In this document: one piece after another, positions 1-19,371 of the stretch
Position numbering within the stretch: the first letter of the stretch is position 1
How the letters are laid out: each line of letters begins with the position of its first letter
NCBI GenBank assembly: GCA_050745085.1
Contig: JBOGJB010000140.1
Location: 1-35,615 of the forward strand
DNA length: 35,615 nt
Direction: 5' to 3'
Source: Vicinamibacterales bacterium
GTDB taxonomy: Bacteria > Acidobacteriota > Vicinamibacteria > Vicinamibacterales > 2-12-FULL-66-21
The notes under the pieces: model-generated
Databases searched by the model: none
Seen by the model: only the letters and a program-made list of their open reading frames with translations
Told to the model about the DNA's origin: nothing
Translations under genes and position numbers: made by a program

Positions 1-141
1 GTGCTGACCAAGTCGCTCGGATCGGCGAATCCGCACAACGTCGTGCGGGCGACGTTTACCGGGCTGATGACGCTCAGGGATCCGGCCGCGGTCGCGCGGC
101 TGCGCGGGCGCGAGCTGGAGCCTGCCGGAGAGCGGGGCTAA
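1..141 (+). CDS. rpsE: 30S ribosomal protein S5, C-terminal fragment (5' end outside window)
   Basis: Frame 1 is open from base 1 to TAA 139-141 and reads [36 protein letters not shown], a conserved S5 C-terminus. It sits directly upstream of rpmD-rplO, as in spc operons. Confidence 0.9.
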
Positions 142-145
142 GCCA

Positions 146-361
146 ATGCCGGACAAGAAGGCGCAGGCCGACAAGACGGCGAAGAAAAAGACGCTCAAGA
201 TCACGCTCGTGCGGAGCACGATCGGGTTCAAGCGCAACCAGGCTGACGTCGTGCGTGGCATGGGGCTGCGGCGCCTCCATCACACGGTGGAGCTCGCCGA
301 CACGCCGGCGACGCGCGGCATGATTCACAAGGTGCGCCACCTCGTGGAAGTGGTCGAATAA
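146..361 (+). CDS. rpmD: 50S ribosomal protein L30
   Basis: 71-aa [58 protein letters not shown] is a typical L30 sequence. It starts 4 nt after the rpsE stop. Confidence 0.95.
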
Positions 362-362
362 C

Positions 363-815
363 ATGTCATTGAACAACTTGCGCCCGCCGCAGGGCGCGAA
401 GCACTCGAAGAAACGGGTCGGCCGCGGGCAGGGGTCGGGCAGCGGCAAAACGGCCGGCCGCGGGCACAAGGGGGCGAAGTCGCGCTCCGGGTTCAAGCAC
501 AAGCGCGGGTTCGAGGGCGGGCAGATGCCGCTCCACCGCCGCGTGCCGAAGCGCGGGTTCCACAACCCCTTCCGCGTGGAGTACGCCGTCGTCAACCTCG
601 ACGCGATCGCCGAGCGGTTCGACGCCGGTGCGGAGATCACGCCCGAGCTCTTGCGCGAGCGCGGGCTCGTCGGCGCGGCGGGCCGCGTGAAAGTCAAAGT
701 GCTGGCGCGCGGTGACATCGGCAAGGCGCTCACGGTGCGCGCCCACAAATTCAGCGGCAAGGCGGCGGAGAAGATCGCCGCGGCCGGGGGGAAGGCTGAG
801 GTACTTACGCCGTAG
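363..815 (+). CDS. rplO: 50S ribosomal protein L15
   Basis: 150-aa ORF with the Gly/Arg/Lys-rich N-terminus [20 protein letters not shown] typical of L15. It starts 1 nt after the rpmD stop. Confidence 0.95.
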
Positions 816-978
816 TCCTTGGTCCTTGGTCCGTGGTCCTTAGTCAGGTGCACGCCGCACCGAACGAAGGACTAAGGACTAAGGACTAAGGACTGAGGAC
901 TAAGGACTAAGGACTAAGGACTAAGGACTAAGGACTAAGGACTAAGGACTAAGGACTAAGGACTAAGGACTAAGGACT
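813..978 (+). repeat. Heptamer-repeat hairpin A: left arm 813-845 (TAGTCCT/TGGTCCT, ~4.7 units), loop 846-868, right arm 869-978 (GGACTAA x15 plus a partial unit)
   Basis: Counted directly. Fifteen contiguous 7-nt units occupy 869-973, all GGACTAA except GGACTGA at 890-896, followed by a partial GGACT. The left arm is the degenerate reverse complement and begins at the rplO TAG stop. The loop contains a small GGTGC/GCACC hairpin. Confidence 0.95.
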
Positions 979-992
979 GGCAGAGTCACTGA

Positions 993-2384
<1,392 letters not shown>

Positions 2385-2385
2385 C

Positions 2386-3054
2386 TTGCCCGTCAACCTC
2401 ATCGTGCTGGGCCCTCCGGGGGCCGGCAAGGGTACGCAGGCGGAGCGTTTCGCGCGGGTCCGAGGCATCCCGAAGATCTCGACGGGGGACATCCTCCGTG
2501 AGGCGGTCTCCGCCGGGACCGAGCTGGGGTGCATCGCGAAGGCGACGATGGACGCCGGCAAGCTGGTCGGCGACGACCTGATGATCGGCATTGTGCGCGA
2601 GCGGCTGTCGCGCCCGGACACGGCCCACGGCTTCGTGCTCGACGGCTTTCCGCGGACCGTCAGGCAGGCCGAGGTGCTCGACGGGATGATGAACGGCCGC
2701 GGACCGCTCGTCGTGCTCGACATCGTCGTGCCGCCGGAGGAGCTGGTGCGGCGCCTGGCGCAGCGCCGCGTCTGCAGCAACTGCGGCTGGACGACGGCCG
2801 CTGACGGCGAGACCGTCTGCTCGAAGTGCGGTGGCGCGATCGTCCAGCGGAGCGACGACAGCACCGAGGTCGTGCGCAAGCGGCTGCAGGTGTACGAGCG
2901 CGACACGAAGCCGCTCGTCGAGTACTACCGATCGCGGGGAAAGCTGCAGGTCATCGACGGCAACCGGCCCCCGGCGGAGGTCTCGGCGGCGGTGGATTCA
3001 GCGGTCGCGCAGGCGGCGAAGCCGGAGACCGAGGCGCGGGGCCAGAGGACATGA
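2386..3054 (+). CDS. adk: Adenylate kinase (zinc-lid type)
   Basis: 222-aa ORF with a TTG start 1 nt after the secY stop. It has the P-loop GPPGAGKGTQ and a Cys4 lid, CSNCG...CSKCGG. Confidence 0.95.
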   Translation: MPVNLIVLGPPGAGKGTQAERFARVRGIPKISTGDILREAVSAGTELGCIAKATMDAGKLVGDDLMIGIVRERLSRPDTAHGFVLDGFPRTVRQAEVLDGMMNGRGPLVVLDIVVPPEELVRRLAQRRVCSNCGWTTAADGETVCSKCGGAIVQRSDDSTEVVRKRLQVYERDTKPLVEYYRSRGKLQVIDGNRPPAEVSAAVDSAVAQAAKPETEARGQRT

Positions 3055-3854
3055 TCGTCTGCAAGTCGCCGGCGGAGCTGCGGCGGATGCGGGCGGCGAA
3101 CCAGGTCGTGGCGGAGATCCTCGCCGAGCTGGCCGCGATGACCGCCCCCGGCGTGACGACCGCCGACCTGGATCAGTTCGCCGAGGCGCGGGTGCGCGCC
3201 GCGGGGGCGGCGCCCGCGTTCAAGGGCTACCGCGGGTACCCGGCGACGCTGTGCGCGTCGGTGAACGACGAGGTGGTGCACGGCATCCCTTCGAAGCGGA
3301 AGCTGAACGAGGGAGACATCCTGTCACTCGACATGGGGGTGCTCCTCGACGGGTTTTACGGCGACTCGGCGGTGACGGTCGGCGTCGGGGGCATCTCCGC
3401 CGACGCGGGCGAGCTCCTGCGGGTCACCGAGGAGGCGCTGCACAAGGCGATCGATCGGGTGCAGGTCGGCGGGCGTCTTTCGGACATCGGGAACGCCATC
3501 CAGCGCTGGGTCGAGGCGCACGGGTTCTCGGTCGTGCGCGAGTTCGTCGGGCACGGGATCGGCGCGTCGCTCCATGAGGAGCCGCAGATCCCGAACTACG
3601 GCGAGCCGGGACGCGGCCCACGGCTGGTCGAGGGCATGGTGCTCGCGATCGAACCGATGGTGAATGCAGGCCGTCCGGCGGTGAAGATTCTGTCGGACGG
3701 ATGGACCGCGGTGACGCGCGACGGCAGCCTCTCGGCGCACTTCGAGCACACGGTGGCGGTCACCTCCGACGGACCGCTAGTGCTCACGGTGCCGAACAGC
3801 GCCGAGCCGCCCGCCCGCCGCGCCCCGGGGGCGCGCCCGGAGGCGAGGCCGTAG
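3051..3854 (+). CDS. map: Type I methionine aminopeptidase
   Basis: The internal ATG at 3051 overlaps the adk stop (ATGA). The sequence begins MIVCKSPAELRRMRAANQVV and has MetAP metal-ligand contexts (LDGFYGDSA, VGHGIG, LAIEP, HFEHTV). The upstream part of the 342-aa track ORF is Arg/Gly-rich, overlaps adk and is rejected. Confidence 0.92.
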   Translation: MIVCKSPAELRRMRAANQVVAEILAELAAMTAPGVTTADLDQFAEARVRAAGAAPAFKGYRGYPATLCASVNDEVVHGIPSKRKLNEGDILSLDMGVLLDGFYGDSAVTVGVGGISADAGELLRVTEEALHKAIDRVQVGGRLSDIGNAIQRWVEAHGFSVVREFVGHGIGASLHEEPQIPNYGEPGRGPRLVEGMVLAIEPMVNAGRPAVKILSDGWTAVTRDGSLSAHFEHTVAVTSDGPLVLTVPNSAEPPARRAPGARPEARP

Positions 3855-3863
3855 GGCGCCCGG

Positions 3864-4103
3864 GTGGACGACGACGTCAGGCCGGGCCGCTCGCGAGACC
3901 AGCAATCGACGGGTGTGGTGCGAGAAGTCCTGCCGCACGCGCTGTATCGCGTCGAGCTGGGCAACGGGCACGTCGTCGTGGCACACGCGGCAAGCGGCCG
4001 CGGTCGCAACTTCGTTCGGATTCTCGTCGGCGACTCGGTCTGCGTGGAGTTGTCGCCGGTGGATTTGAACAGAGGACGGATTACGAGGCGGGTAAACAGC
4101 TAA
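3864..4103 (+). CDS. infA: Translation initiation factor IF-1
   Basis: 79-aa [26 protein letters not shown]...[27 protein letters not shown] matches the IF-1 S1 fold. It has a GTG start; the exact start is uncertain. Confidence 0.88.
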
Positions 4104-4208
4104 TGCCGAATGCCGAATGCCAAATGCCGAACGCGTCGCGCTTGCGACGGCGGAACGACCGTTGCGAGCGCAGTCGACTTCGGCCTTCGGCATTGGGCAT
4201 TCGGCATT
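4102..4208 (+). repeat. Heptamer-repeat hairpin B (AATGCCG family): left arm 4102-4136, structured core 4137-4174, right arm 4175-4208 (CGGCATT units)
   Basis: The left arm reads AATGCCG AATGCCG AATGCCA AATGCCG AACGCGT, starting inside the infA TAA. The right arm reads CGGCCTT CGGCATT GGGCATT CGGCATT. An inner 13-bp stem (4138-4150 with 4159-4171) contains two G-U pairs. Confidence 0.93.
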
Positions 4209-4224
4209 GATAGGGGACGAGAGC

Positions 4225-4338
4225 GTGAAGGTCAGGGCATCGGTGAGGCGCATCTGCGCGAAGTGCAAGGTCGTCCGACGCCGCGGCGTGGTCCGGGTGA
4301 TCTGTACGAATCAGAAACACAAGCAGAGACAGGGTTGA
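4225..4338 (+). CDS. rpmJ: 50S ribosomal protein L36
   Basis: GTG at 4225 is preceded by [42 protein letters not shown] is full-length L36 with its Cys/His zinc knuckle. The 73-aa track ORF simply starts at an ATG inside repeat B. Confidence 0.9.
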
Positions 4339-4342
4339 TCCA

Positions 4343-4380
4343 TTCGGGATTGTGGATTGCGGATGTGGATTCGCGGGATG
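4343..4380 (+). repeat. Degenerate heptamer tract (GGATTGT GGATTGC GGATGT GGATTCGCG GGATG) in the rpmJ-rpsM spacer
   Basis: GGAT recurs at 4347, 4354, 4361, 4367 and 4376 (spacings 7, 7, 6, 9). No inverted partner is present. Confidence 0.5.
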
Positions 4381-4408
4381 AGCCCCCAGTCCCTCCAGAG
4401 GAACAGAG

Positions 4409-4783
4409 ATGGCACGTATAGCAGGCGTTGATCTTCCGCGGACCAAGCGGGTCGAGATCGGGCTCACCTACATCTACGGCATCGGGCGGAAGCGCTCGAA
4501 CGACATCCTGTCGGCCGCCGGCGTCAGCCCGGACGTCCGGGTCAAGGACCTGTCGGAAGAGGACGTCCGGAAGATCAGCCGCGTGATCGAGGAGGAAGGG
4601 CGCGTCGAGGGCGACCTCCGCAAGGAAGTCTCGCTCCACATCAAGCGGCTGATGGAGATCGGCAGCTATCGGGGCGGCCGTCACCGGCGCAACCTGCCAG
4701 TCCGCGGCCAGCGCACGCGCACGAACGCGCGCACGCGGAAGGGCCCGCGCAAGGGCGCGATCACGAAGAAGAAGGTAATTTAG
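4409..4783 (+). CDS. rpsM: 30S ribosomal protein S13
   Basis: 124-aa ORF beginning [27 protein letters not shown], with GAGGAA upstream of the ATG. Confidence 0.96.
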
Positions 4784-4811
4784 CAGTGACTGCTGATGGT
4801 GGATTGCTGAT
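4784..4811 (+). repeat. Short heptamer tract CAGTGAC TGCTGAT GGTGGAT TGCTGAT in the rpsM-rpsK spacer
   Basis: TGCTGAT occurs at 4791-4797 and 4805-4811, exactly 14 nt apart. The intervening unit shares the NNNTGAN pattern. Confidence 0.45.
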
Positions 4812-4813
4812 TT

Positions 4814-5263
4814 ATGGCCAAGACTGAACCGAAGGCGGAGCAGCCAGAGGGCGCGACGCCCGAAGGCGGAAAAAAACCGAAGAAGAAGACGTTCAAGAAA
4901 CGCGGCGAGAAGCGCATCGTCCACCACGGGGTGGCGAACGTCCGCGCGTCGTTCAACAACACGACGATCACGATTACCGACCCTGAGGGGCACGTGATCG
5001 CCTGGTCGAGCGCCGGCGCGGTCGGCTTCAAGGGGTCGCGCAAGGGGACGCCGTTCGCGGCGACGCAGGCGGCGATGAACGCCGGCAACGCCGCGAAGAC
5101 GTACGGCATGCGCACGCTCGAGGTGCGGGTGAAGGGGCCGGGCGCGGGCCGCGAGTCAGCGATCCGCGCGCTGCAGACCGTCGGGCTCGACGTCAAGTCG
5201 ATCCGCGACGTCACGCCGATCCCGCACAACGGGTGCCGGCCGCCGAAGCGACGAAGGGTTTGA
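4814..5263 (+). CDS. rpsK: 30S ribosomal protein S11 (with ~20-aa Lys/Pro/Glu-rich N-terminal extension)
   Basis: 149-aa [35 protein letters not shown]...[13 protein letters not shown] is typical S11. Confidence 0.95.
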
Positions 5264-5299
5264 CGATGACTGTGATGGTGATAGAGGTAGAGATACAGA

Positions 5300-5929
5300 A
5301 TGGCTAGGTATATCGGTCCCGTGTGTCGCCTGTGCCGCCGCGAAGGCATGAAGCTCTTCCTGAAGGGGGAGCGCTGCTACACCGAGAAGTGCGCGATCGA
5401 GAAGCGCAACATCCCGCCGGGGCAGCACGGTAAGATGCGCAAGGCGAAGCTCCTCGGCTACGGCCTGCAGCTCCGCGAGAAACAGAAGGTCAAGCGCATC
5501 TACGGCGTGCTCGAGAACCAGTTCCGCCGCTACTTCGAGGAGGCGGAACGGCAGCGCGGCATCACCGGTGAAACGCTGCTCCAGATGCTGGAGCGCCGGC
5601 TCGACAACGTGATCTACCGCCTCGGACTTGCGACCTCGCGGCCGCAGGCGCGGCAGCTCGTGCGCCACGGCCACTTCATGGTCAACGGCAAGAAGGTGGA
5701 CGTGCCGTCCTTCTCCGTCCGCGCCGGGGACGTCGTGACCGTGCGGGGGACGAGCGCCGAGAACACGGCGATCCAGCACGCGATGGAAGAGGTCAAGGGA
5801 CGCGGCATCCCCCAATGGCTCGAGTTCGACGCCGCGAAGCTGAGTGGGCGCATCGCATCGCTCCCCACGCGCGAGCAGATCAACCTGCCCGTGCAGGAGC
5901 AACTGATAGTGGAGCTGTACTCGAAATAG
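5300..5929 (+). CDS. rpsD: 30S ribosomal protein S4
   Basis: 209-aa ORF beginning [31 protein letters not shown] (zinc-ribbon S4 N-terminus), followed by an S4 RNA-binding domain. Confidence 0.96.
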
Positions 5930-5932
5930 AGA

Positions 5933-6033
5933 AATGCCGAATGCCGAACGCCGAAAGGGTCTGCACTCGCGACCGTCGGCGACTGTCGACGAGCGTAGAC
6001 GTTTTCGGCATTCGGTATTCGGCATTCGGCATT
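5933..6033 (+). repeat. Heptamer-repeat hairpin C (AATGCCG family): left arm 5933-5960, core, right arm 6006-6033
   Basis: The left arm reads AATGCCG AATGCCG AACGCCG AAAGGGT. The right arm reads CGGCATT CGGTATT CGGCATT CGGCATT. The core shares GCGAC...GTCGAC strings with the core of element B. The element starts 4 nt after the rpsD TAG. Confidence 0.92.
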
Positions 6034-6063
6034 GACGGAAGACAAACGAAAGGAATCACACCC

Positions 6064-7044
6064 ATGCTGTGGAAAGGTTTCCAGCGGCCGAAGCGGCTGG
6101 AGTTCGAGCGTGAGACGCTTACCGACAGGTTCGGCCGGTTCTACGCGCAGCCGTTTGAGCGCGGGTTCGGAACGACGATCGGGAACGCCCTGCGCCGCGT
6201 GCTGCTGTCCTCGGTCGAGGGAGCGGCGGTCACAGCGGTCAAGATCGAGGGGGTCCTCCACGAGTTCTCCCCGATCCCAGGCGTCGTCGAGGACGCGACC
6301 GACATCATCCTCAACCTGAAGCAGATCCCGCTGAAAATGCACGGCGATCACACGAAGACGCTGTACCTCAAAGCGGAGAAGCCGGGCGTCGTGCGCGCGC
6401 GGGACATCGAGACCGACGCCGACGTCGAGATCCTCGAGCCGGACGCGCACATCGCGACCGTGTCAGAGCACGGCAAGCTGCAGATGGAGATGCGCGTCAA
6501 GCGCGGGCGCGGCTACGTCGCAGCCGACAAGAACTTCGACGAGGACCTCGGCATCGGCTGGATTCCGATCGACTCGGTGCACTCGCCGATCAAGAAGGTC
6601 AACTACCTCGTCGAGGCGGCGCGCCTCGGACAGACCACCGACTACGACAAGCTGACCGTGGACGTCTGGACCAACGGCGCCGTGACGCCGCGTGACGCCG
6701 TGTCGCTCGCGGCCAAGCTGATCCGCGATCACCTGACGATCTTCGTCAACCTCGAGGAAGCGCTCGAGTCGGCGCCGGAGGCGGCCTCCGACACGCCCCG
6801 CGCGGCGCTCAACGAGAACCTCGACAAGAGCGTCGAAGAGCTGGAGCTTTCCGTCCGGTCCTACAACTGCCTCAAGAACGCGAACATCCGGACGATCCGC
6901 GAGCTGGTGCAGAAGACCGAAGGGGAGATGCTCAAGACGAAGAACTTCGGCCGCAAGTCACTGAACGAGATTAAGGAGATCCTGTCGACCATGGGTCTCA
7001 GCCTCGGGATGAGATTGGATCAACCGACTCACGCTCAGGAGTAA
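6064..7044 (+). CDS. rpoA: DNA-directed RNA polymerase subunit alpha
   Basis: ATG at 6064 is preceded by AAAGGAA. The sequence begins [17 protein letters not shown], has an N-terminal assembly domain, and has a C-terminal domain with [23 protein letters not shown] (the HhH of the alpha-CTD). The upstream part of the 409-aa track ORF runs through repeat C and is rejected. Confidence 0.95.
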
Positions 7045-7050
7045 ACGGTA

Positions 7051-7245
7051 AGTTCTTAGTGCTTGGTTCTTAGTGCTTAGTGTGATTTCCCTCGCGACTG
7101 ACTTCGCTGTTGTGGGTCTCGTGTCTTTGCTTGTTTCTTCTGCGTGCGCTGGCGGTGAACGCGACGCGTGGACAGCGAAGATCAATCACCGAAGACGCTG
7201 GCGAGCGAGGTCAGACTAAGCACTAAGAACTAAGCACTAAGAACT
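7051..7245 (+). repeat. Heptamer-repeat hairpin D: 31-bp stem (7051-7081 with 7215-7245) enclosing a 133-nt lower-GC core
   Basis: The left arm is AGTTCTT AGTGCTT GGTTCTT AGTGCTT AGT. The right arm is ACT AAGCACT AAGAACT AAGCACT AAGAACT. I checked it base by base and found 30 Watson-Crick pairs plus one G-U (7065 with 7231). The core has internal pairings CTTCGCTGT/ACAGCGAAG and CCTCGC/GCGAGG. Confidence 0.93.
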
Positions 7246-7258
7246 GTGAGGATCGAGA

Positions 7259-7867
7259 ATGCGTCACGGACGAGCACACAGAAAGCTGGGGCGGGTCGCC
7301 GACCATCGCGTCGCGATGCTCCGGAACCAGGCGCAGGACCTCCTGCGCCACGAGCGGATCCGGACGACGGTGCCGCGCGCGAAGGAGTTGCGGCCGTTCG
7401 TCGAGCGGATCATCACGATCGCCAAGCGAAGCCTCGCGGACGGCGGGATGACCCGCGGCGTCACCGCGCGGCGGCTCGTCGCCCGCGACATCCACGACCG
7501 CGCCGTCGTCGTCAAGCTGTTCGACACGATCGCGCCGCGGTTCGCGGAGCGGCCGGGCGGTTATACGCGGCTCCTCCGCCTCGGCCATCGCCGCGGCGAC
7601 GACGCCGAGGTCGCGCAGATCGAGCTCATCGGGAGCGAGTACAACCCAAGTGCGGCGACCGGGAAGACCGCGGGCGAAGGCGCGGCCCCCGCGAAGACGA
7701 AGGGGGTCGGCGGGCGTCTGCGCGCCGCCGCCGACCGGCTACGCGGCAAGAAGGCCGAGGCGCAGGCGGCGAAGTCCGAAGGTCGGAGGGACGCGGAGCC
7801 CAAGCAGGGCAAGACGCGGGCCACGGCCAAAGGTCCCAAGAAGGCCCGGACGCGCGACGACGAGTAG
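7259..7867 (+). CDS. rplQ: 50S ribosomal protein L17 with ~77-aa Lys/Ala/Gly-rich C-terminal tail
   Basis: 202-aa ORF beginning [53 protein letters not shown] (L17), with GAGGAT upstream. Confidence 0.95.
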
Positions 7868-7879
7868 CGCCGTCGGGCT

Positions 7880-8776
7880 CTACTCCTGCGCCTGCAGCTG
7901 GACTTCGATCACCTTGGCGTACTTGACCGGTTGCCCGTCCTTGAGCGCCGGCGTGAACGTCCAGTTCTGCGCAGCTCTCAGAAGCGCCGCGTCGTACGAC
8001 GTGTGAATCGCGCGGAGGAGCGTCACGCTCTCGACCTTGCCGGTTTCGTCGATGATGAGCCGCACGAGACCGCTGAGAACCGTCCCGCGGCGCAGGTTTC
8101 CTGGCGACCGCCAGGGCGGCAGATCCTGCACCATCGCTACCGGCACCGTGACACGCGGGTCGTCGCCGCCGTAGACGATCGGCGCCGGCGGTAGGGTCGG
8201 CACCGGGGCCGGCAGTGAAACCGTTCGAGCGGCCGCGGCGGCCGCGGCCTTTGCGCGGGCTAGCGTCAGCAGCCCATCGGCCACGAGGTGCAGGTCGTCC
8301 AATCCGTCGACGTCCTTGACCGCCGGATCCGACGTGATTCGGGCCACGCGATCGAGCTGCTCGATGGCCTGCTGGTGCTCCTGTCGTTCGAATAAGGCCT
8401 TCGCTGCCGCGAACTCCTTCCGGGCGACGCCCGGCAGCAGCTCGCGGCGTGTCTCGGCGAACAGGGTCGCAATTCTCGGCGTGACCTCGGCCTCCACTGG
8501 CACGTACAAGGGATCCCGTTCGACAATCCGTCTCACCGAGGCGCGCGCCTCGCTCTGCCGTCCAATTGCCAGCAGGCACAGGGCGCGGTACTGTTCCGCT
8601 TCGATCGCAATCGCGGTGTCGGTACCGTTCACGCTCGCCAGCACGCTGAGCGCATCTTCGTAGGACGCCGAGGCATAGAGCTCCCGGACGCTGGCCATCT
8701 GCGTCTGCCCCACCGCGGGTGACGCGATGAGGAACGTCAGGGCGATTCCCGTCACGATTCTGAGACCGCGTGTCAT
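7880..8776 (-). CDS. Secreted protein with TPR-like N-terminal region, Ala/Pro linker and TonB C-terminal-like domain
   Basis: 298-aa ORF with a signal peptide (LTFLIASPAVGQ). Its C-terminus, GLVRLIIDETGKVESVTLLRAIHTSYDAALLRAAQNWTFTPALKDGQPV, resembles the TonB_C fold. The start overlaps the upstream stop (ATGA). Confidence 0.7.
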   Translation of the reverse strand: MTRGLRIVTGIALTFLIASPAVGQTQMASVRELYASASYEDALSVLASVNGTDTAIAIEAEQYRALCLLAIGRQSEARASVRRIVERDPLYVPVEAEVTPRIATLFAETRRELLPGVARKEFAAAKALFERQEHQQAIEQLDRVARITSDPAVKDVDGLDDLHLVADGLLTLARAKAAAAAAARTVSLPAPVPTLPPAPIVYGGDDPRVTVPVAMVQDLPPWRSPGNLRRGTVLSGLVRLIIDETGKVESVTLLRAIHTSYDAALLRAAQNWTFTPALKDGQPVKYAKVIEVQLQAQE

Positions 8777-10117: not shown

Positions 10118-11500
10118 TCACTCCGGCGGCAGCTCGAACGAGATGAGATTCCTGCGGAAACCACGCGTCTGTACCGCGCCGTACAACACCCCGGCACCAA
10201 GCCACAGCGCGCCGGCCACCTTCGCCGGCCACCGCAGGCTGAGCCAGAGATACAGACAAAACAAGAACCCGGCGAGCGGCAGGACGAAGTCGGGCCATCG
10301 CCGTTCGGCGGAGCGCGCCCAGTAGCGCGTGAACGCGGCGAGGTTTACCCCCATGAAGGCGATGAAGGCGCCGAAGTTGAGCATCTCTGCGCCGAGCTGG
10401 AATCCGGTGCCGCCGGTGAACTGCGCGAAATAGTCGAGCGACAGGCCGCCGGCGAGCGCCAGCGCGCCGACGAGCAGCACGTTGTTCCGCGGGATTTGAC
10501 GGATCGGCTCGACCGCGCCGAAGAAGCCGCGTGGCAGCGCGTTCTGCCGACCCATCCCATACAGGAGCCGCGCCGCGCCGAGCTGCGCGCCGGTGCCCGA
10601 TCCCATGTTGGCGACGAGCAGCGTGGCGTTGAGGAGGGTGAAGAACATCGGACCGCCCGCCCTGCCCGCGACGTGCACGAACGCGGTATCGACGTCCGGG
10701 AATCCCTTCCAGTCGCCCCAGACGAGCTGCGCGGCGTAGACCTCCACCGACGCGAGCACGCCGATGATGAGACAGGTCAGGACGGTTGCCCGCAGGACAT
10801 TCCTCCGCGGGTCCTCGACCTCTTCGGACAGCGTCGAGATGCCGTCGAACCCGATGTAGGTCAGGCTCGCGATCGACGCCCCGGTGAGCACGAGCGGCAG
10901 CGAAAAGGTGGCCGGATCGTACAACGGCCTCGTGAGCGCGCCGTCCGGGAGCGGCGTGGCCAGCAGGTATCGCACCGCTGCGCCGAAGAAGAGCACGACC
11001 ACCACGGACATGCCGATCGCGAGCACCTCGTTCGTGCGCGCGCTCGCCTTCACGCCGCGCAGGTTGAGCCCCGTGAAGAGCGCCGCGAAGAACACGACCC
11101 AGGCCCAGTACGGGATCCCCGGCAGCACGTTCATCGCCGCCTTGCTGCAAAAGATCGTGCAGATCGTCGGGTTGAGGACGTAGTCCATGACCATGCTCCA
11201 GCCGGTTACGTACCCGAGTCCCGGGTGGAGCTCCTGCCCGACGTAGGTGAAGGCCGATCCGGCGCTCGGGTACGCGCGCGCCATGCGTCCGTAGCTCAAG
11301 GCCGTCAGGAGCATCGCGACCATGCCGATCAGGATCGTCGTAACGACGTGCCCGCGCGCTTCCGTGCTGACGACGCCGAAGATGCTCATCGGCGCGACCG
11401 GCTGGATGATGACGATGCCGTAGAAGACGAGATCCCACAGCGTCAGCGTGCGCTTGAGCGTCGCGGCCTGGGGCTGGCCTGCGGCGTTAGTGGCCGGCAT
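10118..11500 (-). CDS. APC superfamily (amino acid/polyamine/organocation) permease
   Basis: 460-aa ORF predicted to span the membrane about 12 times, with an N-terminal LKRTLTLWDLVFYGIVIIQPVAPMSIFG segment typical of APC permeases. Its start overlaps the upstream GH2 gene end by 14 nt. Confidence 0.85.
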   Translation of the reverse strand: MPATNAAGQPQAATLKRTLTLWDLVFYGIVIIQPVAPMSIFGVVSTEARGHVVTTILIGMVAMLLTALSYGRMARAYPSAGSAFTYVGQELHPGLGYVTGWSMVMDYVLNPTICTIFCSKAAMNVLPGIPYWAWVVFFAALFTGLNLRGVKASARTNEVLAIGMSVVVVLFFGAAVRYLLATPLPDGALTRPLYDPATFSLPLVLTGASIASLTYIGFDGISTLSEEVEDPRRNVLRATVLTCLIIGVLASVEVYAAQLVWGDWKGFPDVDTAFVHVAGRAGGPMFFTLLNATLLVANMGSGTGAQLGAARLLYGMGRQNALPRGFFGAVEPIRQIPRNNVLLVGALALAGGLSLDYFAQFTGGTGFQLGAEMLNFGAFIAFMGVNLAAFTRYWARSAERRWPDFVLPLAGFLFCLYLWLSLRWPAKVAGALWLGAGVLYGAVQTRGFRRNLISFELPPE

Positions 11501-16730: not shown

Positions 16731-16735
16731 ACGCA

Positions 16736-16803
16736 AGTACGAAGCTCGAAGTACGAAGGCTGAAGTTGGTTCACTTCAGCCTTCGAACTTCGTCCTTCGT
16801 ACT
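16736..16803. repeat. Heptamer-repeat hairpin E between convergent genes: arms 16736-16766 and 16773-16803, 6-nt loop
   Basis: The left arm is AGTACGA AGCTCGA AGTACGA AGGCTGA AGT. 28 of 31 positions pair with the right arm. The right arm encodes the last 10 codons of the minus-strand CRTAC1 gene, and the stop codon (16771-16773) spans the loop-arm junction. Confidence 0.9.
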
Positions 16804-18483
16804 GGGGTTCGTATCCTGTCGGATCTCGACGACCTGATTCACCTTGATGTTCTTCTGCGTGGTGGAAGTCCCGTCCGGCCAGCGGACCTCCAACGAGTCG
16901 ACCGTCGCGGCCGGCCCCAGCCCGAAGTGCTGGCGGAGGTCTTCCTGTGAGAGGTAACTGCTTCCGCTCTGCACCAGTCGCTTCCGCACGGTAGAGCCCG
17001 TCCGCGCGGTCACGACCGCGCCGATCGCGTCGAGATTCTTACCCGCCCCCCGCAGCTTCACGAGCAGCCAATTGCCCGTTCCCGTCGACTCGTTGCGCAG
17101 GACCTGCGGGCTGCCGTCGAGATCGTTGATGACGAGGTCGAGCCGGCCGTCGTTGTCCAGATCCGACGCCGCCAGGCCGCGACTGACCCGTTCTTCAGTC
17201 ATGACCGGTCCGAACTGCGCCGCGACCTCGTCGAACGTGCCATCCCCGCGGTTGTGGAAGATCAGCTTCCGCTGCCGGTAGCCGGCGGATGCGCCGAGGC
17301 GCGCCTTGTCCATCTGCGGATACACGTGGCCGTTGACGACGATCATGTCGAGCAGGCCGTCGTTGTCGTAGTCGAAGAACGCATTGCCCCAGCCGACGAA
17401 CGGCAGGCTGACCGCGCCGGTCCTCGACCGGAACGCCCTCTCGGTGAAGTGATCGCCGTCGTTGTGAAAGAGATTGTTGTACTCTTCCGAGAAGTTGGTC
17501 ACGAACAGCGCGAAGCGACCGCAGTTGTCGTAGTCGCCGACTGCCACGCCCATGCTGCCCTGCTCCGCGCCGTCCTCGCTCACCGCGGCGCCCTGCGGGA
17601 AGCCCACGTCCTTGAACGTGCCGTCCTTCTGATTCACGTACAGAAAGTTCGCATTCGAGTCGTTCGCGACGTACAGATCGAGCCAGCCGTCCTCGTTGTG
17701 ATCGAACCACGCGAGGCCCAGCCCGAAGTAGCCTCGCGGATCGGCGACGCCCGCTTTCTGCGATACCTCCGTAAATCGTCCGGTGCCGTCGTTGTTGAAC
17801 AGGAAGTCCGACTCGCCGGGAAGCCCGCGCGGTCCGCATTGAACGGCGATGCCGCGGTACTCGCACGTCTTGTCCCGGCCGAACTGCGGCAGGTTGTCCA
17901 GATCGACCTTGACGTACCGCGACACGAACAGGTCGAGGTCCCCGTCCCGGTCGTAGTCGCCGAACGCGCATCCGGCCGACCACCCTCCGCCGCGCACCCC
18001 GGCTCGATCCGTGATGTCGGCGAACGTGCCGTCGTGGTTGTTGCGATACAGCCGGTTGCCGCCGAGCGCCGTCACGTGCAGATCCTGCCACCCGTCCGCG
18101 TCCACGTCCGCCGCGCAGACGCCCATACCCCAGCCAGGGTGGCCGACGCCCGCCTTGTCGGTCACATCCGCGAACGTCCAGTTGCCGAGATTGCGATACA
18201 ACGCGCTTCGAGCCGCCTTCGGGTCCTTCGAGGTTTCCACTGTCAGCGAATCAACGAGGTAGATGTCGAGCAGGCCGTCGTTGTCGAAGTCGAAAGTGGC
18301 GATCCCACCGCTCATCGATTCGACGATGTATTTCTTTTCGGGGGCGGCATGATGTTGAAAGATGATGCCGGCCTCGCGGGTGACGTCGCGGAAGCGCGAT
18401 CCAGTGGCACCAGGCGGCGCGGCAGGGGGACCGGCGGCCTGCGATGCCGTCAGGATCATGGCGAGCGCTACATGGCGTGTCAT
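16771..18483 (-). CDS. CRTAC1 family protein (FG-GAP/VCBS repeats plus ASPIC/UnbV C-terminal domain)
   Basis: 570-aa ORF with a signal peptide and repeated DxDxDGxxD calcium-type loops (FDFDNDGLLDIYLV, DVDADGWQDLHV, DYDRDGDLDLFV). Its C-terminus, NWLLVKLRGAGKNLDAIGAVVTARTG...GSSYLSQEDLRQHFGLG, is typical ASPIC/UnbV. ATGA overlap with the upstream gene. Confidence 0.88.
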   Translation of the reverse strand: MTRHVALAMILTASQAAGPPAAPPGATGSRFRDVTREAGIIFQHHAAPEKKYIVESMSGGIATFDFDNDGLLDIYLVDSLTVETSKDPKAARSALYRNLGNWTFADVTDKAGVGHPGWGMGVCAADVDADGWQDLHVTALGGNRLYRNNHDGTFADITDRAGVRGGGWSAGCAFGDYDRDGDLDLFVSRYVKVDLDNLPQFGRDKTCEYRGIAVQCGPRGLPGESDFLFNNDGTGRFTEVSQKAGVADPRGYFGLGLAWFDHNEDGWLDLYVANDSNANFLYVNQKDGTFKDVGFPQGAAVSEDGAEQGSMGVAVGDYDNCGRFALFVTNFSEEYNNLFHNDGDHFTERAFRSRTGAVSLPFVGWGNAFFDYDNDGLLDMIVVNGHVYPQMDKARLGASAGYRQRKLIFHNRGDGTFDEVAAQFGPVMTEERVSRGLAASDLDNDGRLDLVINDLDGSPQVLRNESTGTGNWLLVKLRGAGKNLDAIGAVVTARTGSTVRKRLVQSGSSYLSQEDLRQHFGLGPAATVDSLEVRWPDGTSTTQKNIKVNQVVEIRQDTNPSTKDEVRRLK

Positions 18484-19361
18484 CGCGATTGCCCGTCTGG
18501 ACCGCCGGGCGTTCTGAGGGTCTTCACCCGCTCTTCCATCTCACGCAACTTCTGTTGATACAGGTCCACGTGCCTACGCGCCGCTTCGGCGTCTCCTAGG
18601 CGGGCGTACGCGAGGCTGAGCTGATAGTGGATCTTCGGCGAGGCGACATCGATCGCGGCGGCCGCGAGCAGTGCGTCCCGCGCTTCGGCGTACTCTCCCC
18701 TCTTGATCAAGACCATACCGAGGACCAGATGGGCCGTGGCGTGCCCGCCCGCCTTCGCGAGCGCGCGTCGAGCGTGCCCGTCGGCCGCGTCGAGTTCGCC
18801 GAGTCCTTCTTCCGCCTCCGCCAGCGCGGCCGTGGCGTCGACGCTGTCGGGGTCGCGCTCGAGCGCACGCGCGAGAGAGGACTTCGCTTCGGCATACTGC
18901 TTGCGGTTGTTCAGGGCCAGCCCCAGCGCCGTGAGCGTCAGGGCCTTGTCGGGTTCGAGGCGATCCGCTTCACCGAGCGAGTCGACGGCCGCTTCCATGT
19001 CGCCCGCCTGCATCAGCGCCACGCCGCGCAGATAGTGATACTCCCCGACCGTTGGGCAGATGCGCGTGAGCGCGTCGAGTGCCACGAGCGCCAGGATGGG
19101 CCTGTGCGCCGCCAAAGACACCTGGGCGTAGGCACTCAGCACTTCTTCCGAATTCGGTGCGATCGCGCGCGCCTTGCGAAGCGAGTCGAGAGCCGCCGAC
19201 GCGTTCCCTTCCTGGACCTGCGTCCTCGCGAGCTGCATCAGCGCCCGCACCGACTGCGGACTTGCAGACTGGGCCTCCGCACCGGCCGCGGCGACCAGAA
19301 TGGCTCCCAGCACCATGGCACCCAGCACCACCTTCGGCATTCGGCATTCGGCCTTCGGCAT
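18480..19361 (-). CDS. Secreted tetratricopeptide (TPR) repeat protein
   Basis: The start is taken at ATG 19361 (MPKAECRMPKVVLGAMVLGAILVAAAGAEAQS, a signal peptide). ATG at 19340 is an equally plausible start. Both ATGs are supplied by AATGCCG repeat units. The longer track ORF would overlap the upstream gene. Confidence 0.8.
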   Translation of the reverse strand: MPKAECRMPKVVLGAMVLGAILVAAAGAEAQSASPQSVRALMQLARTQVQEGNASAALDSLRKARAIAPNSEEVLSAYAQVSLAAHRPILALVALDALTRICPTVGEYHYLRGVALMQAGDMEAAVDSLGEADRLEPDKALTLTALGLALNNRKQYAEAKSSLARALERDPDSVDATAALAEAEEGLGELDAADGHARRALAKAGGHATAHLVLGMVLIKRGEYAEARDALLAAAAIDVASPKIHYQLSLAYARLGDAEAARRHVDLYQQKLREMEERVKTLRTPGGPDGQSR

Positions 19362-19371
19362 TGGACTAAGG
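19331..19371. repeat. Half-element F: single array CGGCATT CGGCATT CGGCCTT CGGCATT followed by GGACTAAGG, no inverted partner
   Basis: The units sit at 19335-19362 and use the same heptamer as elements B and C. The adjacent 9-mer GGACTAAGG (19363-19371) matches the element A unit and contains the stop codon of the upstream TPR gene. Confidence 0.85.

Follow-up and report, generated by a model that had tools for sequence, protein, structure and literature searches.

A Shine–Dalgarno-like GGACTAA array upstream of secY in a Vicinamibacterales bacterium is probably the overgrown arm of an intergenic heptamer-repeat hairpin

Why is the secY gene of a Vicinamibacterales bacterium preceded by a long run of near-identical GGACTAA heptamers, each of which resembles a Shine–Dalgarno (SD) sequence? 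The array lies between rplO and secY, both essential genes, on contig JBOGJB010000140.1 (assembly GCA_050745085.1), of which a stretch of 35,615 nt with a G+C content of 67% was analyzed (the window; 35.6 kb of the genome, the rest of which was unseen). An earlier reading of the letters alone (the original prediction) had proposed a ribosome platform or protein sponge that tunes SecY synthesis. The analysis presented here indicates that the run is probably the overgrown right arm of a slippage-expanded intergenic heptamer-repeat hairpin of a known class, its SD-likeness being a by-product. The locus comprises the following features (related loci and contigs carry the prefix L).

363-815, plus strand: rplO, ribosomal protein L15 (open reading frame, ORF; Pfam Ribosomal_L27A on the identical gene in L001)
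810-845, plus strand: degenerate left arm, (G)TAGTCC TTGGTCC TTGGTCC GTGGTCC TTAGTC, about 4.4-4.6 units (Tandem Repeats Finder, TRF; inverted repeats; fold)
847-861, plus strand: small apical GC hairpin GGUGC-ACGCC-GCACC in the unique loop 846-866 (fold)
867-978, plus strand: right arm, AAGGACT x16.0, in GGACTAA phase from 869 (TRF: period 7, 98% matches, score 217)
890-896, plus strand: lone variant unit GGACTGA (in both assemblies, see below)
979-992, plus strand: 14-nt tail GGCAGAGUCACUGA without a usable SD (sequence, anti-SD pairing energies)
993-2384, plus strand: secY (ORF; Pfam SecY; homologs 57-79% identical in 80 genomes)

The rplO-secY spacer measures 177 nt. The rplO stop codon TAG (813-815) lies inside the first left-arm unit; at the other end, a gap of 14 nt separates the array end (978) from the secY ATG at 993, and the last GGA ends at 976, 16 nt before the AUG. 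An in-frame TGA (990-992) directly abuts this ATG, and no upstream ORF for secY was found, the in-frame stretch 5' of the gene having no start codon. Read in GGACTAA phase, the right arm consists of three perfect units, the variant GGACTGA, eleven perfect units and a terminal GGACT. The left arm, delimited by TRF to 815-845 (period 7, 4.4 copies, 87% matches, consensus GTCCTTG), is complementary to GGACUAA with G.U wobble in its three central units, and inverted-repeat analysis revealed complementarity of the arms in at least 12 registers. The original prediction had counted 15.7 right-arm and 4.7 left-arm units; the array and its asymmetry were confirmed, with copy numbers corrected by TRF to 16.0 and 4.4. 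Its ~16 tandem UAAGGA motifs likewise correspond to a real SD-like run, in which the sense strand has 14 exact TAAGGA, fewer than the 16 predicted; the variants UGAGGA and GAAGGA, once each, bring the RAGGA cores to 16. In the whole window, TAAGGA was found 18 times versus 3.1 expected from shuffled sequences (0 of 100 shuffles reached 18), and the unit dimer GGACTAAGGACTAA gave 21 matches with up to two mismatches versus 0.02 expected. Each unit supplies a plus-strand TAA and a minus-strand TAG, and three units close all six frames; thus, the array is non-coding, and the coding of a peptide was ruled out.

The element had been taken as unique; instead, TRF analysis of the window and of related genomes identified it as one member of a genome-wide and phylum-wide class. 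Six further heptamer arrays were detected in the window, four of them in the same ribosomal-protein operon, and in total the window holds five inverted heptamer pairs and two unpaired arrays. Period-7 runs numbered 10 (375 nt), compared with 0-3 for each other period between 4 and 12. The additional elements are:

4099-4209, plus strand: sibling hairpin between infA and rpmJ, (AATGCCG)x4.7 / (TTCGGCA)x4.6 around a GC-rich inner stem, -76.1 kcal/mol (TRF at 4102/4179, fold)
4342-4376, plus strand: degenerate direct heptamer array (GGATTGT-like) in the rpmJ-rpsM spacer, without inverted partner (TRF)
5932-6034, plus strand: sibling hairpin between rpsD and rpoA, AATGCCG / TTCGGCA arms, -67.6 kcal/mol (TRF at 5933/6004, fold)
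7051-7245, plus strand: sibling hairpin between rpoA and rplQ, alternating ACTAAGC/ACTAAGA, mirrored in the left arm, 195 nt, -107.9 kcal/mol (TRF, fold)
16731-16808, no strand assigned: heptamer hairpin AAGTACG / CTTCGTA between convergent ROK and FG-GAP/ASPIC genes (TRF at 16735/16781, fold)
19330-19362, minus strand: orphan half-element (AATGCCG)x4.3 directly after the stop codon of a TPR gene, without complementary arm (TRF, TTCGGCA at 19333)

The inner stems of the two AATGCCG hairpins at 4099 and 5932 are paralogous (14/18 and 13/16 positions identical). TRF placed the arms of the rpoA-rplQ hairpin (AGTGCTT/ACTAAGA) at 7051/7215, and its fold leaves the SD GAGGA and the AUG unpaired. The heptamer hairpins of the window fold with z-scores of -8 to -9, and all four operon hairpins fold better on the sense strand. 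At the convergent locus, the last ~12 codons of the FG-GAP/ASPIC gene (minus strand) overlap the right arm (window 16771-16808) and the Pfam match stops 18 residues before the stop codon; thus, the C-terminal tail of this protein is encoded by repeat sequence. The orphan half-element (window 19300-19362) adjoins a 15-nt tandem duplication, ATGGCACCCAGCACC x2.1.

The genomes encoding the SecY relatives (57-79% identity) are Acidobacteriota, the closest being Vicinamibacterales metagenome-assembled genomes (MAGs). Heptamer arrays are patchily distributed among them. Some relatives carry arrays at most intercistronic junctions. Heptamer runs number 21 per 13 kb in both L006 and L012, 18 in L042 (Thermoanaerobaculia), 17 in L018, 11 in L013 and 7-8 each in L004, L011, L045, L047 and L067, whereas the equally close L002, L003, L005, L007, L008, L009 and L017 have none. 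The unit cores are genome-specific (AGCTNNN in L006/L012, AAAGATG and AACTCAS in L042, CCGACAN in L045). In the window and 80 related loci, 39 paired elements were identified, with arms of 21-44 nt or ~4-5 units, as against 119 nt for the longest arm, that of the window, and 58 nt for the next. Contigs of 0.98-1.5 Mb (L013, L018) also bear heptamer arrays, and the class is thus not a short-contig artifact. At 46 array-bearing ribosomal-protein junctions, the first array starts at a median of 6.5 nt after the stop codon and a median of 19 nt separates the end of the last one from the next start codon, leaving the SD of the downstream gene immediately beyond the arm. The stop codon often lies in phase within the first unit, as in GTAGTCC here, TAATGCC at infA, TGAGTTC in L042 and TAGCTTC in L006. 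A loss of the SD at array-bearing junctions was ruled out, since the median SD strength in the last 18 nt was -5.9 kcal/mol there versus -6.1 kcal/mol at 318 array-free junctions. A fixed polarity with the purine-rich arm 3', next to the ribosome-binding site (RBS), was also rejected (20 versus 14, p=0.39).

Paralogous hairpins at different junctions (L006 at 563, 9284 and 10351; L012 at 9389 and 10373; L042 at 1648 and 3095) have common arm-adjacent sequence, and the common 3' tails of the copies in L042, L006 and L012 carry the SD of the downstream gene (GACAAGGATCAA; GGAGACGATATG). These sequences suggest that whole spacers, comprising hairpin and RBS, may have been copied or homogenized between junctions. 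The tail GACAAGGATCAA resembles the unit dimer of the window, GACTAAGGACTAA. Inverted-array hairpins with period 8 (AATCGAGT/AATTACCC types) were found in L011 (732-838, 4347-4433 and 10750-10825) and one with period 9 in L010 (11789-11875); the period is thus a property of the genome and not fixed at 7. The rpmJ-rpsM spacer of L006 (9224-9285) harbors a loop-less palindrome that passes from AGCTTCC-type to GGNAGCT-type units around a central CAGCTG, with unit 1 opening with the TAG stop codon. Arrays of AGGGATT (GGGATTA), a unit with a G-tract, occur in L012 (12314-12366) and L018 (3714-3747, 5527-5547); these arrays resemble the G-quadruplex-forming GGGAATC/GGGGATT repeats of Xanthomonas and Nostoc, and the same genomes contain many units that are not G-rich.

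At the rplO-secY junction itself, most of ~75 relatives have either a 4-nt overlap of the two genes or a small spacer between them (-4 to 35 nt). Thus, the 177-nt spacer is a lineage-specific insertion that removed the stop/start overlap. L013 carries in the same spacer a symmetric 5+5 hairpin of GGCTCAC/CCTGAGC units with a mismatch every 7 bp, which, judged by its sequence, is an independent acquisition. The secY SDs of the closest relatives are weak with or without arrays (-2.2 to -3.9 kcal/mol; -2.6 kcal/mol here and -3.0 kcal/mol in L013). In window 1-8000, no terminator-like site (GC-rich stem plus U-tract) was present at any hairpin, and no internal promoter matched at the hairpins; from these absent matches and the operon context, we infer that the spacer element is co-transcribed in the spc-operon mRNA. 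An Rfam search of the window and six array-rich relatives gave no match at the gathering threshold.

In metagenomes, a pattern specific for the whole locus gave 0 matches. The array (GGACTAA)4 was detected in at least 120 contigs of 31-74% G+C, with 4-20 units and mostly without an inverted partner. The following counts refer to the matches listed; orientations were counted after de-duplication to 114 clusters, and genes were naive longest-ORF calls. Period-7 runs numbered 292 versus 14-51 for other periods, and 65/120 contigs carry other heptamer units. The arrays are concentrated at the upstream stop codon or overlap it, the array-to-start distances are broad (median 55 nt), and no peak at SD spacing relative to downstream starts was observed. 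Convergent contexts outnumber divergent ones by 21 to 6 (22 to 8 before de-duplication), and contig-internal arrays of 12-20 units are common.

A second allele of the rplO-secY locus was found in assembly GCA_050745005.1. Its contig JBOGJA010000609.1 (L001) encodes an identical SecY and shows 7 mismatches to window 1-3789, the flanks being ~99.8% identical. In L001, whose spacer measures 128 nt, the left arm is unchanged and the right arm comprises 9.0 copies (63 nt) versus 16.0 (112 nt) in the window. The units flanking GGACTGA number 2+6 in L001 and 3+12 in the window, so that both sides differ. A further contig of the same assembly (contig 805, L202) aligned to window 3703-6283 with 99.6% identity and zero gaps over 2,581 nt; thus, the two assemblies agree in the length of both AATGCCG hairpins, and only the over-long arm differs. 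This pattern fits slippage that is strongest on the longest perfect array. Homologous metagenomic (GGACTAA)n loci also differ in copy number (5/7, 12/14 and 6/10), and the proposal of recent slippage at a length-polymorphic locus was thereby corroborated. In searches for additional alleles, exact look-ups of RplO and RpoA gave no match, and those of SecY and L30 led only to the GCA_050745005.1 contig.

The arrays also affect the assemblies. A Logan contig from SRR27067775 (L203), 100% identical to window 4102-5065, starts exactly at the first base of an arm, and metagenome contigs (many of L082-L201) often begin or end exactly at heptamer arrays. On these observations, heptamer elements act as breakpoints in the assembly of short-read metagenomes, and MAGs may contain too few of them or show them at the wrong size. 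Up to ~3789, L001 and the window are nearly the same; over its last ~180 nt, which cover the map C-terminus and the infA start, L001 diverges sharply (window 3728-3863 versus L001 4585-4811). L202 follows the window across this stretch, apart from 8 mismatches clustered at 3728-3824, and a 12-mer repeat (3819-3863) in the map C-terminal tail adjoins the divergence. By its sequence, the end of contig 609 (L001) is probably chimeric or strain-variant.

Folding of positions 800-1000 yielded -93.2 kcal/mol (z -8.6) for the sense strand versus -63.2 kcal/mol for the antisense strand; the sense fold is stronger because TTGGTCC pairs with GGACUAA via G.U. The predicted stem has ~32 bp including G.U pairs and a single mismatch, and leaves 11 (or 4) units outside. 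The right arm exceeds the pairing reach of the 32-nt left arm by ~80 nt in the fold, close to the ~75 nt of array that had been considered unpairable within the hairpin. Whether the left arm pairs with the five right-arm units at the start of the array or with the five at its end makes practically no difference in energy (-69.9 versus -69.7 kcal/mol), and the stem can thus slide. The minimum free energy (MFE) structure pairs the secY-proximal units; the registers are degenerate, with a per-unit unpaired probability of 0.13-0.64.

The motif UAAGGA is complementary to the 3' end of 16S rRNA. Pairing energies were calculated with the anti-SD ACCUCCUUA, assumed to be canonical as the 16S rRNA gene lies outside the window. 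A UAAGGAC unit gave -5.6 kcal/mol, compared with -5.6 to -6.4 kcal/mol for the real SDs of rpoA, rplQ, rpsM and rpmJ; the units are therefore SD-grade in silico, as had been predicted. The -18 to -4 stretch of secY reached only -2.6 kcal/mol, which places it among the weakest 10% of 364 junctions and agrees with the earlier statement that secY has no obvious SD of its own. The usual SD spacing of ~5-10 nt is exceeded by the 16 nt between the last GGA and the AUG. As the reason for the array, SD-likeness was not supported: the sibling AAUGCCG and AAGUACG units and dozens of units in relatives are non-SD, the L013 hairpin in the same spacer uses GGCUCAC/CCUGAGC, weak secY SDs are usual in the clade whether or not arrays are present, and metagenomic (GGACTAA)n arrays cluster at upstream stops with no SD-spacing peak. 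The SD-likeness is thus probably incidental. A two-tier G-quadruplex formed from the GG dinucleotides was also considered and is unlikely with 5-nt loops.

Taken as an expanded member of the hairpin class, the element would have started as a hairpin of roughly 5+5 units which slipped-strand mispairing then extended on its right arm. As part of the spc-operon mRNA, it would fold to a ~32-bp G.U-containing stem with 4-11 units outside. This stable intercistronic stem would break the rplO-secY translational coupling and may serve as a site of double-stranded RNA processing or 3'-protection, by analogy with the Haemophilus hmw1A hairpin. The UAAGGA content would be a by-product of the heptamer that was amplified; it may modulate secY initiation while being neither required nor the cause of the array, and a tuning effect on secY would be possible. 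Several points weigh against this account. Four of its steps are ones that we infer: that the spacer is transcribed, that its RNA folds in vivo, that the arm expanded by slippage, and that secY is affected in any way. The copy-number difference is one between two assemblies only and could partly be due to the repeat resolution of the short-read assembler. The paralogous whole-element copies show that slippage alone leaves the spread of elements unexplained. For the whole family, a sense-strand (RNA-level) signature was not significant (25/39 sense versus 14/39 antisense), and strand preference does not demonstrate an RNA-level role for the hairpin class. Among the metagenome matches listed, (GGACTAA)n between co-directional genes lies in sense 25 times versus 11 times in antisense (p=0.03). 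Finally, SD-grade units stand beside an SD-less secY, which makes an effect on translation conceivable.

The last two points are those on which a ribosome standby or loading platform would build, in which ~75 nt of weakly structured RNA with up to 11 SD-like sites would feed 30S subunits to the SD-less secY and replace the lost coupling. Such a platform would make use of units that pair as well as the real SDs of the operon (-5.6 kcal/mol, versus -2.6 kcal/mol for the own stretch of secY) and are partly unpaired in the predicted ensemble (0.13-0.64); the ancestral coupling, seen as the 4-nt overlap in relatives, has been lost, the metagenomic sense bias also extends to arrays next to gene 5' ends (44 sense versus 22 antisense), and a similar role was proposed for TAACTGA repeats (MacGregor 2015, PMC4679880). 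We nevertheless regard it as distinctly unlikely, because the last GGA is beyond normal SD spacing, the MFE structure pairs just the units nearest secY, a 9-unit allele exists, metagenomic arrays follow upstream stops with broad distances to starts, and an equally weak secY SD is found both behind the non-SD hairpin of L013 and in array-free close relatives. The same stem could be imagined as a rheostat like that of hmw1A, RNase III cleaving the hairpin and the repeat number setting SecY relative to the upstream ribosomal proteins in a heritable, possibly transcription-driven manner. The experimental precedent in H. influenzae (PMC12721329), the strongly sense-favored ~32-bp stem, the asymmetric arm and the two alleles speak for it; secY, however, is an essential housekeeping gene and not a typical contingency gene, and the class consists mostly of symmetric hairpins that did not change between the two assemblies, which makes this explanation unlikely. 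Somewhat more weight, although still on the improbable side, is given to the idea that the array is real and its unit count (16 or 9) is an artifact of the assembler traversing a repeat cycle. Only two assemblies are available, arrays are found at contig ends (L203 starting at 4102 and many metagenome matches), and L001 has the divergent, possibly chimeric end described above; on the other hand, the two assemblies differ on both sides of GGACTGA (3 versus 2 and 12 versus 6 units), arrays of 112 and 63 nt are within ordinary read reach, contig-internal arrays of 12-20 units and copy-number differences between homologous loci occur among the metagenome matches listed, and the class is present on the 0.98-1.5 Mb contigs of L013 and L018.

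The spread of the elements raises the question of mobility. Non-autonomous palindromes inserting between genes, with a secondary heptamer periodicity, in the manner of REPINs (doublets of repetitive extragenic palindromic, REP, sequences) or miniature inverted-repeat transposable elements (MITEs), would account for the shared inner stems and arms of the two AATGCCG hairpins (14/18 and 13/16), for the common arm-adjacent sequence and SD-bearing tails at different junctions of L042, L006 and L012, and for the genome-specific unit families. We consider this improbable: the GGACTAA element has no paralog sharing its core, the stop codon of the host gene at several junctions forms an in-phase part of the first unit, and arm length varies by whole units. 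Target-site duplications were absent from the flanks of the elements in the window and in relatives, and no transposase or REP-associated tyrosine transposase (RAYT) was found in the window; a classical MITE was rejected on these grounds. The REP tag GTAG occurs at 811-814 and is not present in the sibling elements. A sponge for a CsrA/RsmA-type protein, in which the 16 GGA cores within 112 nt would titrate a GGA-binding regulator, is highly improbable. The GGA cores sit in a tandem array or stem and not in short hairpin loops as in CsrB/RsmZ, for the intercistronic element itself neither a promoter nor a terminator was found, sibling elements lack GGA, and no csrA was seen among the window ORFs scanned (rest of the genome unseen).

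Arrays of this kind reportedly belong to the 'long SSR' (simple sequence repeat) class of Mrazek et al. 2007. Intergenic heptameric SSRs were described in Xanthomonas (GGGAATC) and Nostoc (GGGGAYT) by Rehm et al. 2015 (PMC4692102), with a mode of 4 units (range 2-26), 70-75 convergent/inverted pairs per genome and a distance of 28 nt from the upstream ORF. They are few between divergent genes, vary in length between close relatives and are transcribed (PMC4692102). The elements analyzed here share the 7-nt tandem units, the intergenic position in inverted pairs near the upstream stop, the scarcity between divergent genes and the variable unit number. They differ in that the units are not G-rich, many unit families occur per genome, the host belongs to the Acidobacteriota, the density in ribosomal-protein operons is very high, and GGACTAA shows a modest sense bias whereas GGGAATC shows none. 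As the units are not G-rich, G-quadruplex formation cannot explain the preference for 4-5 units. The hairpins of short tandemly repeated repetitive (STRR) 7-bp sequences in cyanobacteria, e.g. at hupS-hupL, for which roles in transcript stability or translational coupling were proposed (PMC2670836), are also heptamer tandem repeats between genes that are co-transcribed, as is presumably the case here; they belong to another phylum, have other units and consist of few, genome-wide unit sets. Four to five tandem heptanucleotides are known from Geobacter metallireducens (PMC2700814). In the 5'-untranslated region (5'-UTR) of H. influenzae hmw1A, (ATCTTTC)n folds into a long, asymmetric hairpin in which 10 repeats are paired and any further ones are unpaired; it is cleaved by RNase III, expression is inverse to n, and changes in n need transcription and folding (PMC12721329). 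By analogy, this is the closest tested analog of the secY element: both are heptamer SSRs just upstream of a gene with a long imperfect hairpin, a fixed paired subset with surplus repeats outside, a G-rich partner arm with G.U pairs and a copy number that varies between strains. In hmw1A, however, which encodes a surface adhesin, the 5'-UTR is promoter-proximal, its left arm is the one made of the repeats, and expression and cleavage were measured, whereas here the long array is the right arm and lies between cistrons before an essential gene.

REPIN and Correia- or ERIC-type (enterobacterial repetitive intergenic consensus) elements are short non-coding intergenic palindromes that are co-transcribed in operons and have paralogous copies per genome. 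REP elements are likewise palindromic and intergenic (PMC3733652). These families resemble the present class as dispersed intergenic hairpins with paralogous copies in one genome, but they have no heptamer periodicity, and here no conserved GTAG/CGTC tag, no target-site duplication and, in the window, no RAYT or transposase was found. TAACTGA repeats of marine Beggiatoaceae occur in 169 direct sets and one indirect set of 2-6 copies and end a few nt from the start codon; binding of S1, Csp or CsrA and translational roles were proposed (MacGregor 2015, PMC4679880). They too are heptamer arrays in ribosomal-protein operons upstream of genes without a canonical RBS; they represent a single, direct unit, whereas GGACTAA here forms part of an inverted pair that is anchored at the upstream stop and ends 14 nt from the ATG. 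From an SD or standby site, the secY element differs by its 16-nt spacing, by the ambiguous accessibility of its units and by having no comparative signal that ties arrays to starts. No description of such elements in Acidobacteria was found in the literature searched.

Apart from the heptamer arrays, a conserved motif was noticed upstream of rpoA in the rpsD-rpoA spacer of several relatives, CCCGCAGCY..N..GAYCTGCRGYGGGAGG, then GCAGGTCTGG. It is located in L004 (~6222-6330), L005 (~10680-10790), L006 (~11050-11160), L009 (~10790), L010 (~10690), L011 (~10830), L012 (~11095-11200), L018 (~10635-10740) and L019 (~4740). Its flanking stems co-vary among genomes (CCCCTG/CAGGGGG versus CACCGG/CCGGTG). 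The motif has no Rfam match and is absent from the rpsD-rpoA spacer of the window, which is occupied by a heptamer hairpin. Going by its sequence, it is a candidate structured leader and possibly a site of ribosomal-protein autoregulation.

The class of heptamer-repeat hairpins itself was already known; new here are its occurrence in Acidobacteriota (Vicinamibacterales) and its unusual density in ribosomal-protein operons. Such repeats (STRRs, long SSRs) have raised questions of function and spread ever since their first description, and only the hmw1A mechanism has been worked out. The locus adds a phylum whose most highly expressed operons are saturated with the elements at their intercistronic junctions, and close genomes with and without elements at orthologous junctions represent a natural comparative design. 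In practical terms, the hairpins break assemblies and make unit counts unreliable, and SD-like or 'regulatory-looking' motifs in such arrays should not be over-read. A far-reaching and improbable extension would view the hairpins as a functional module (stop, hairpin, SD tail, start) that repeatedly colonized ribosomal-protein operons of Acidobacteriota in replacement of translational coupling, with the SD-like arm at rplO-secY acting as a SecY rheostat via standby and/or RNase III. If true, a free-living soil bacterium would apply the contingency mechanism of hmw1A to a housekeeping gene that is essential. Tuning of secY by the expanded arm, should it occur, would provide a rare case of simple-sequence contingency at a core housekeeping gene.

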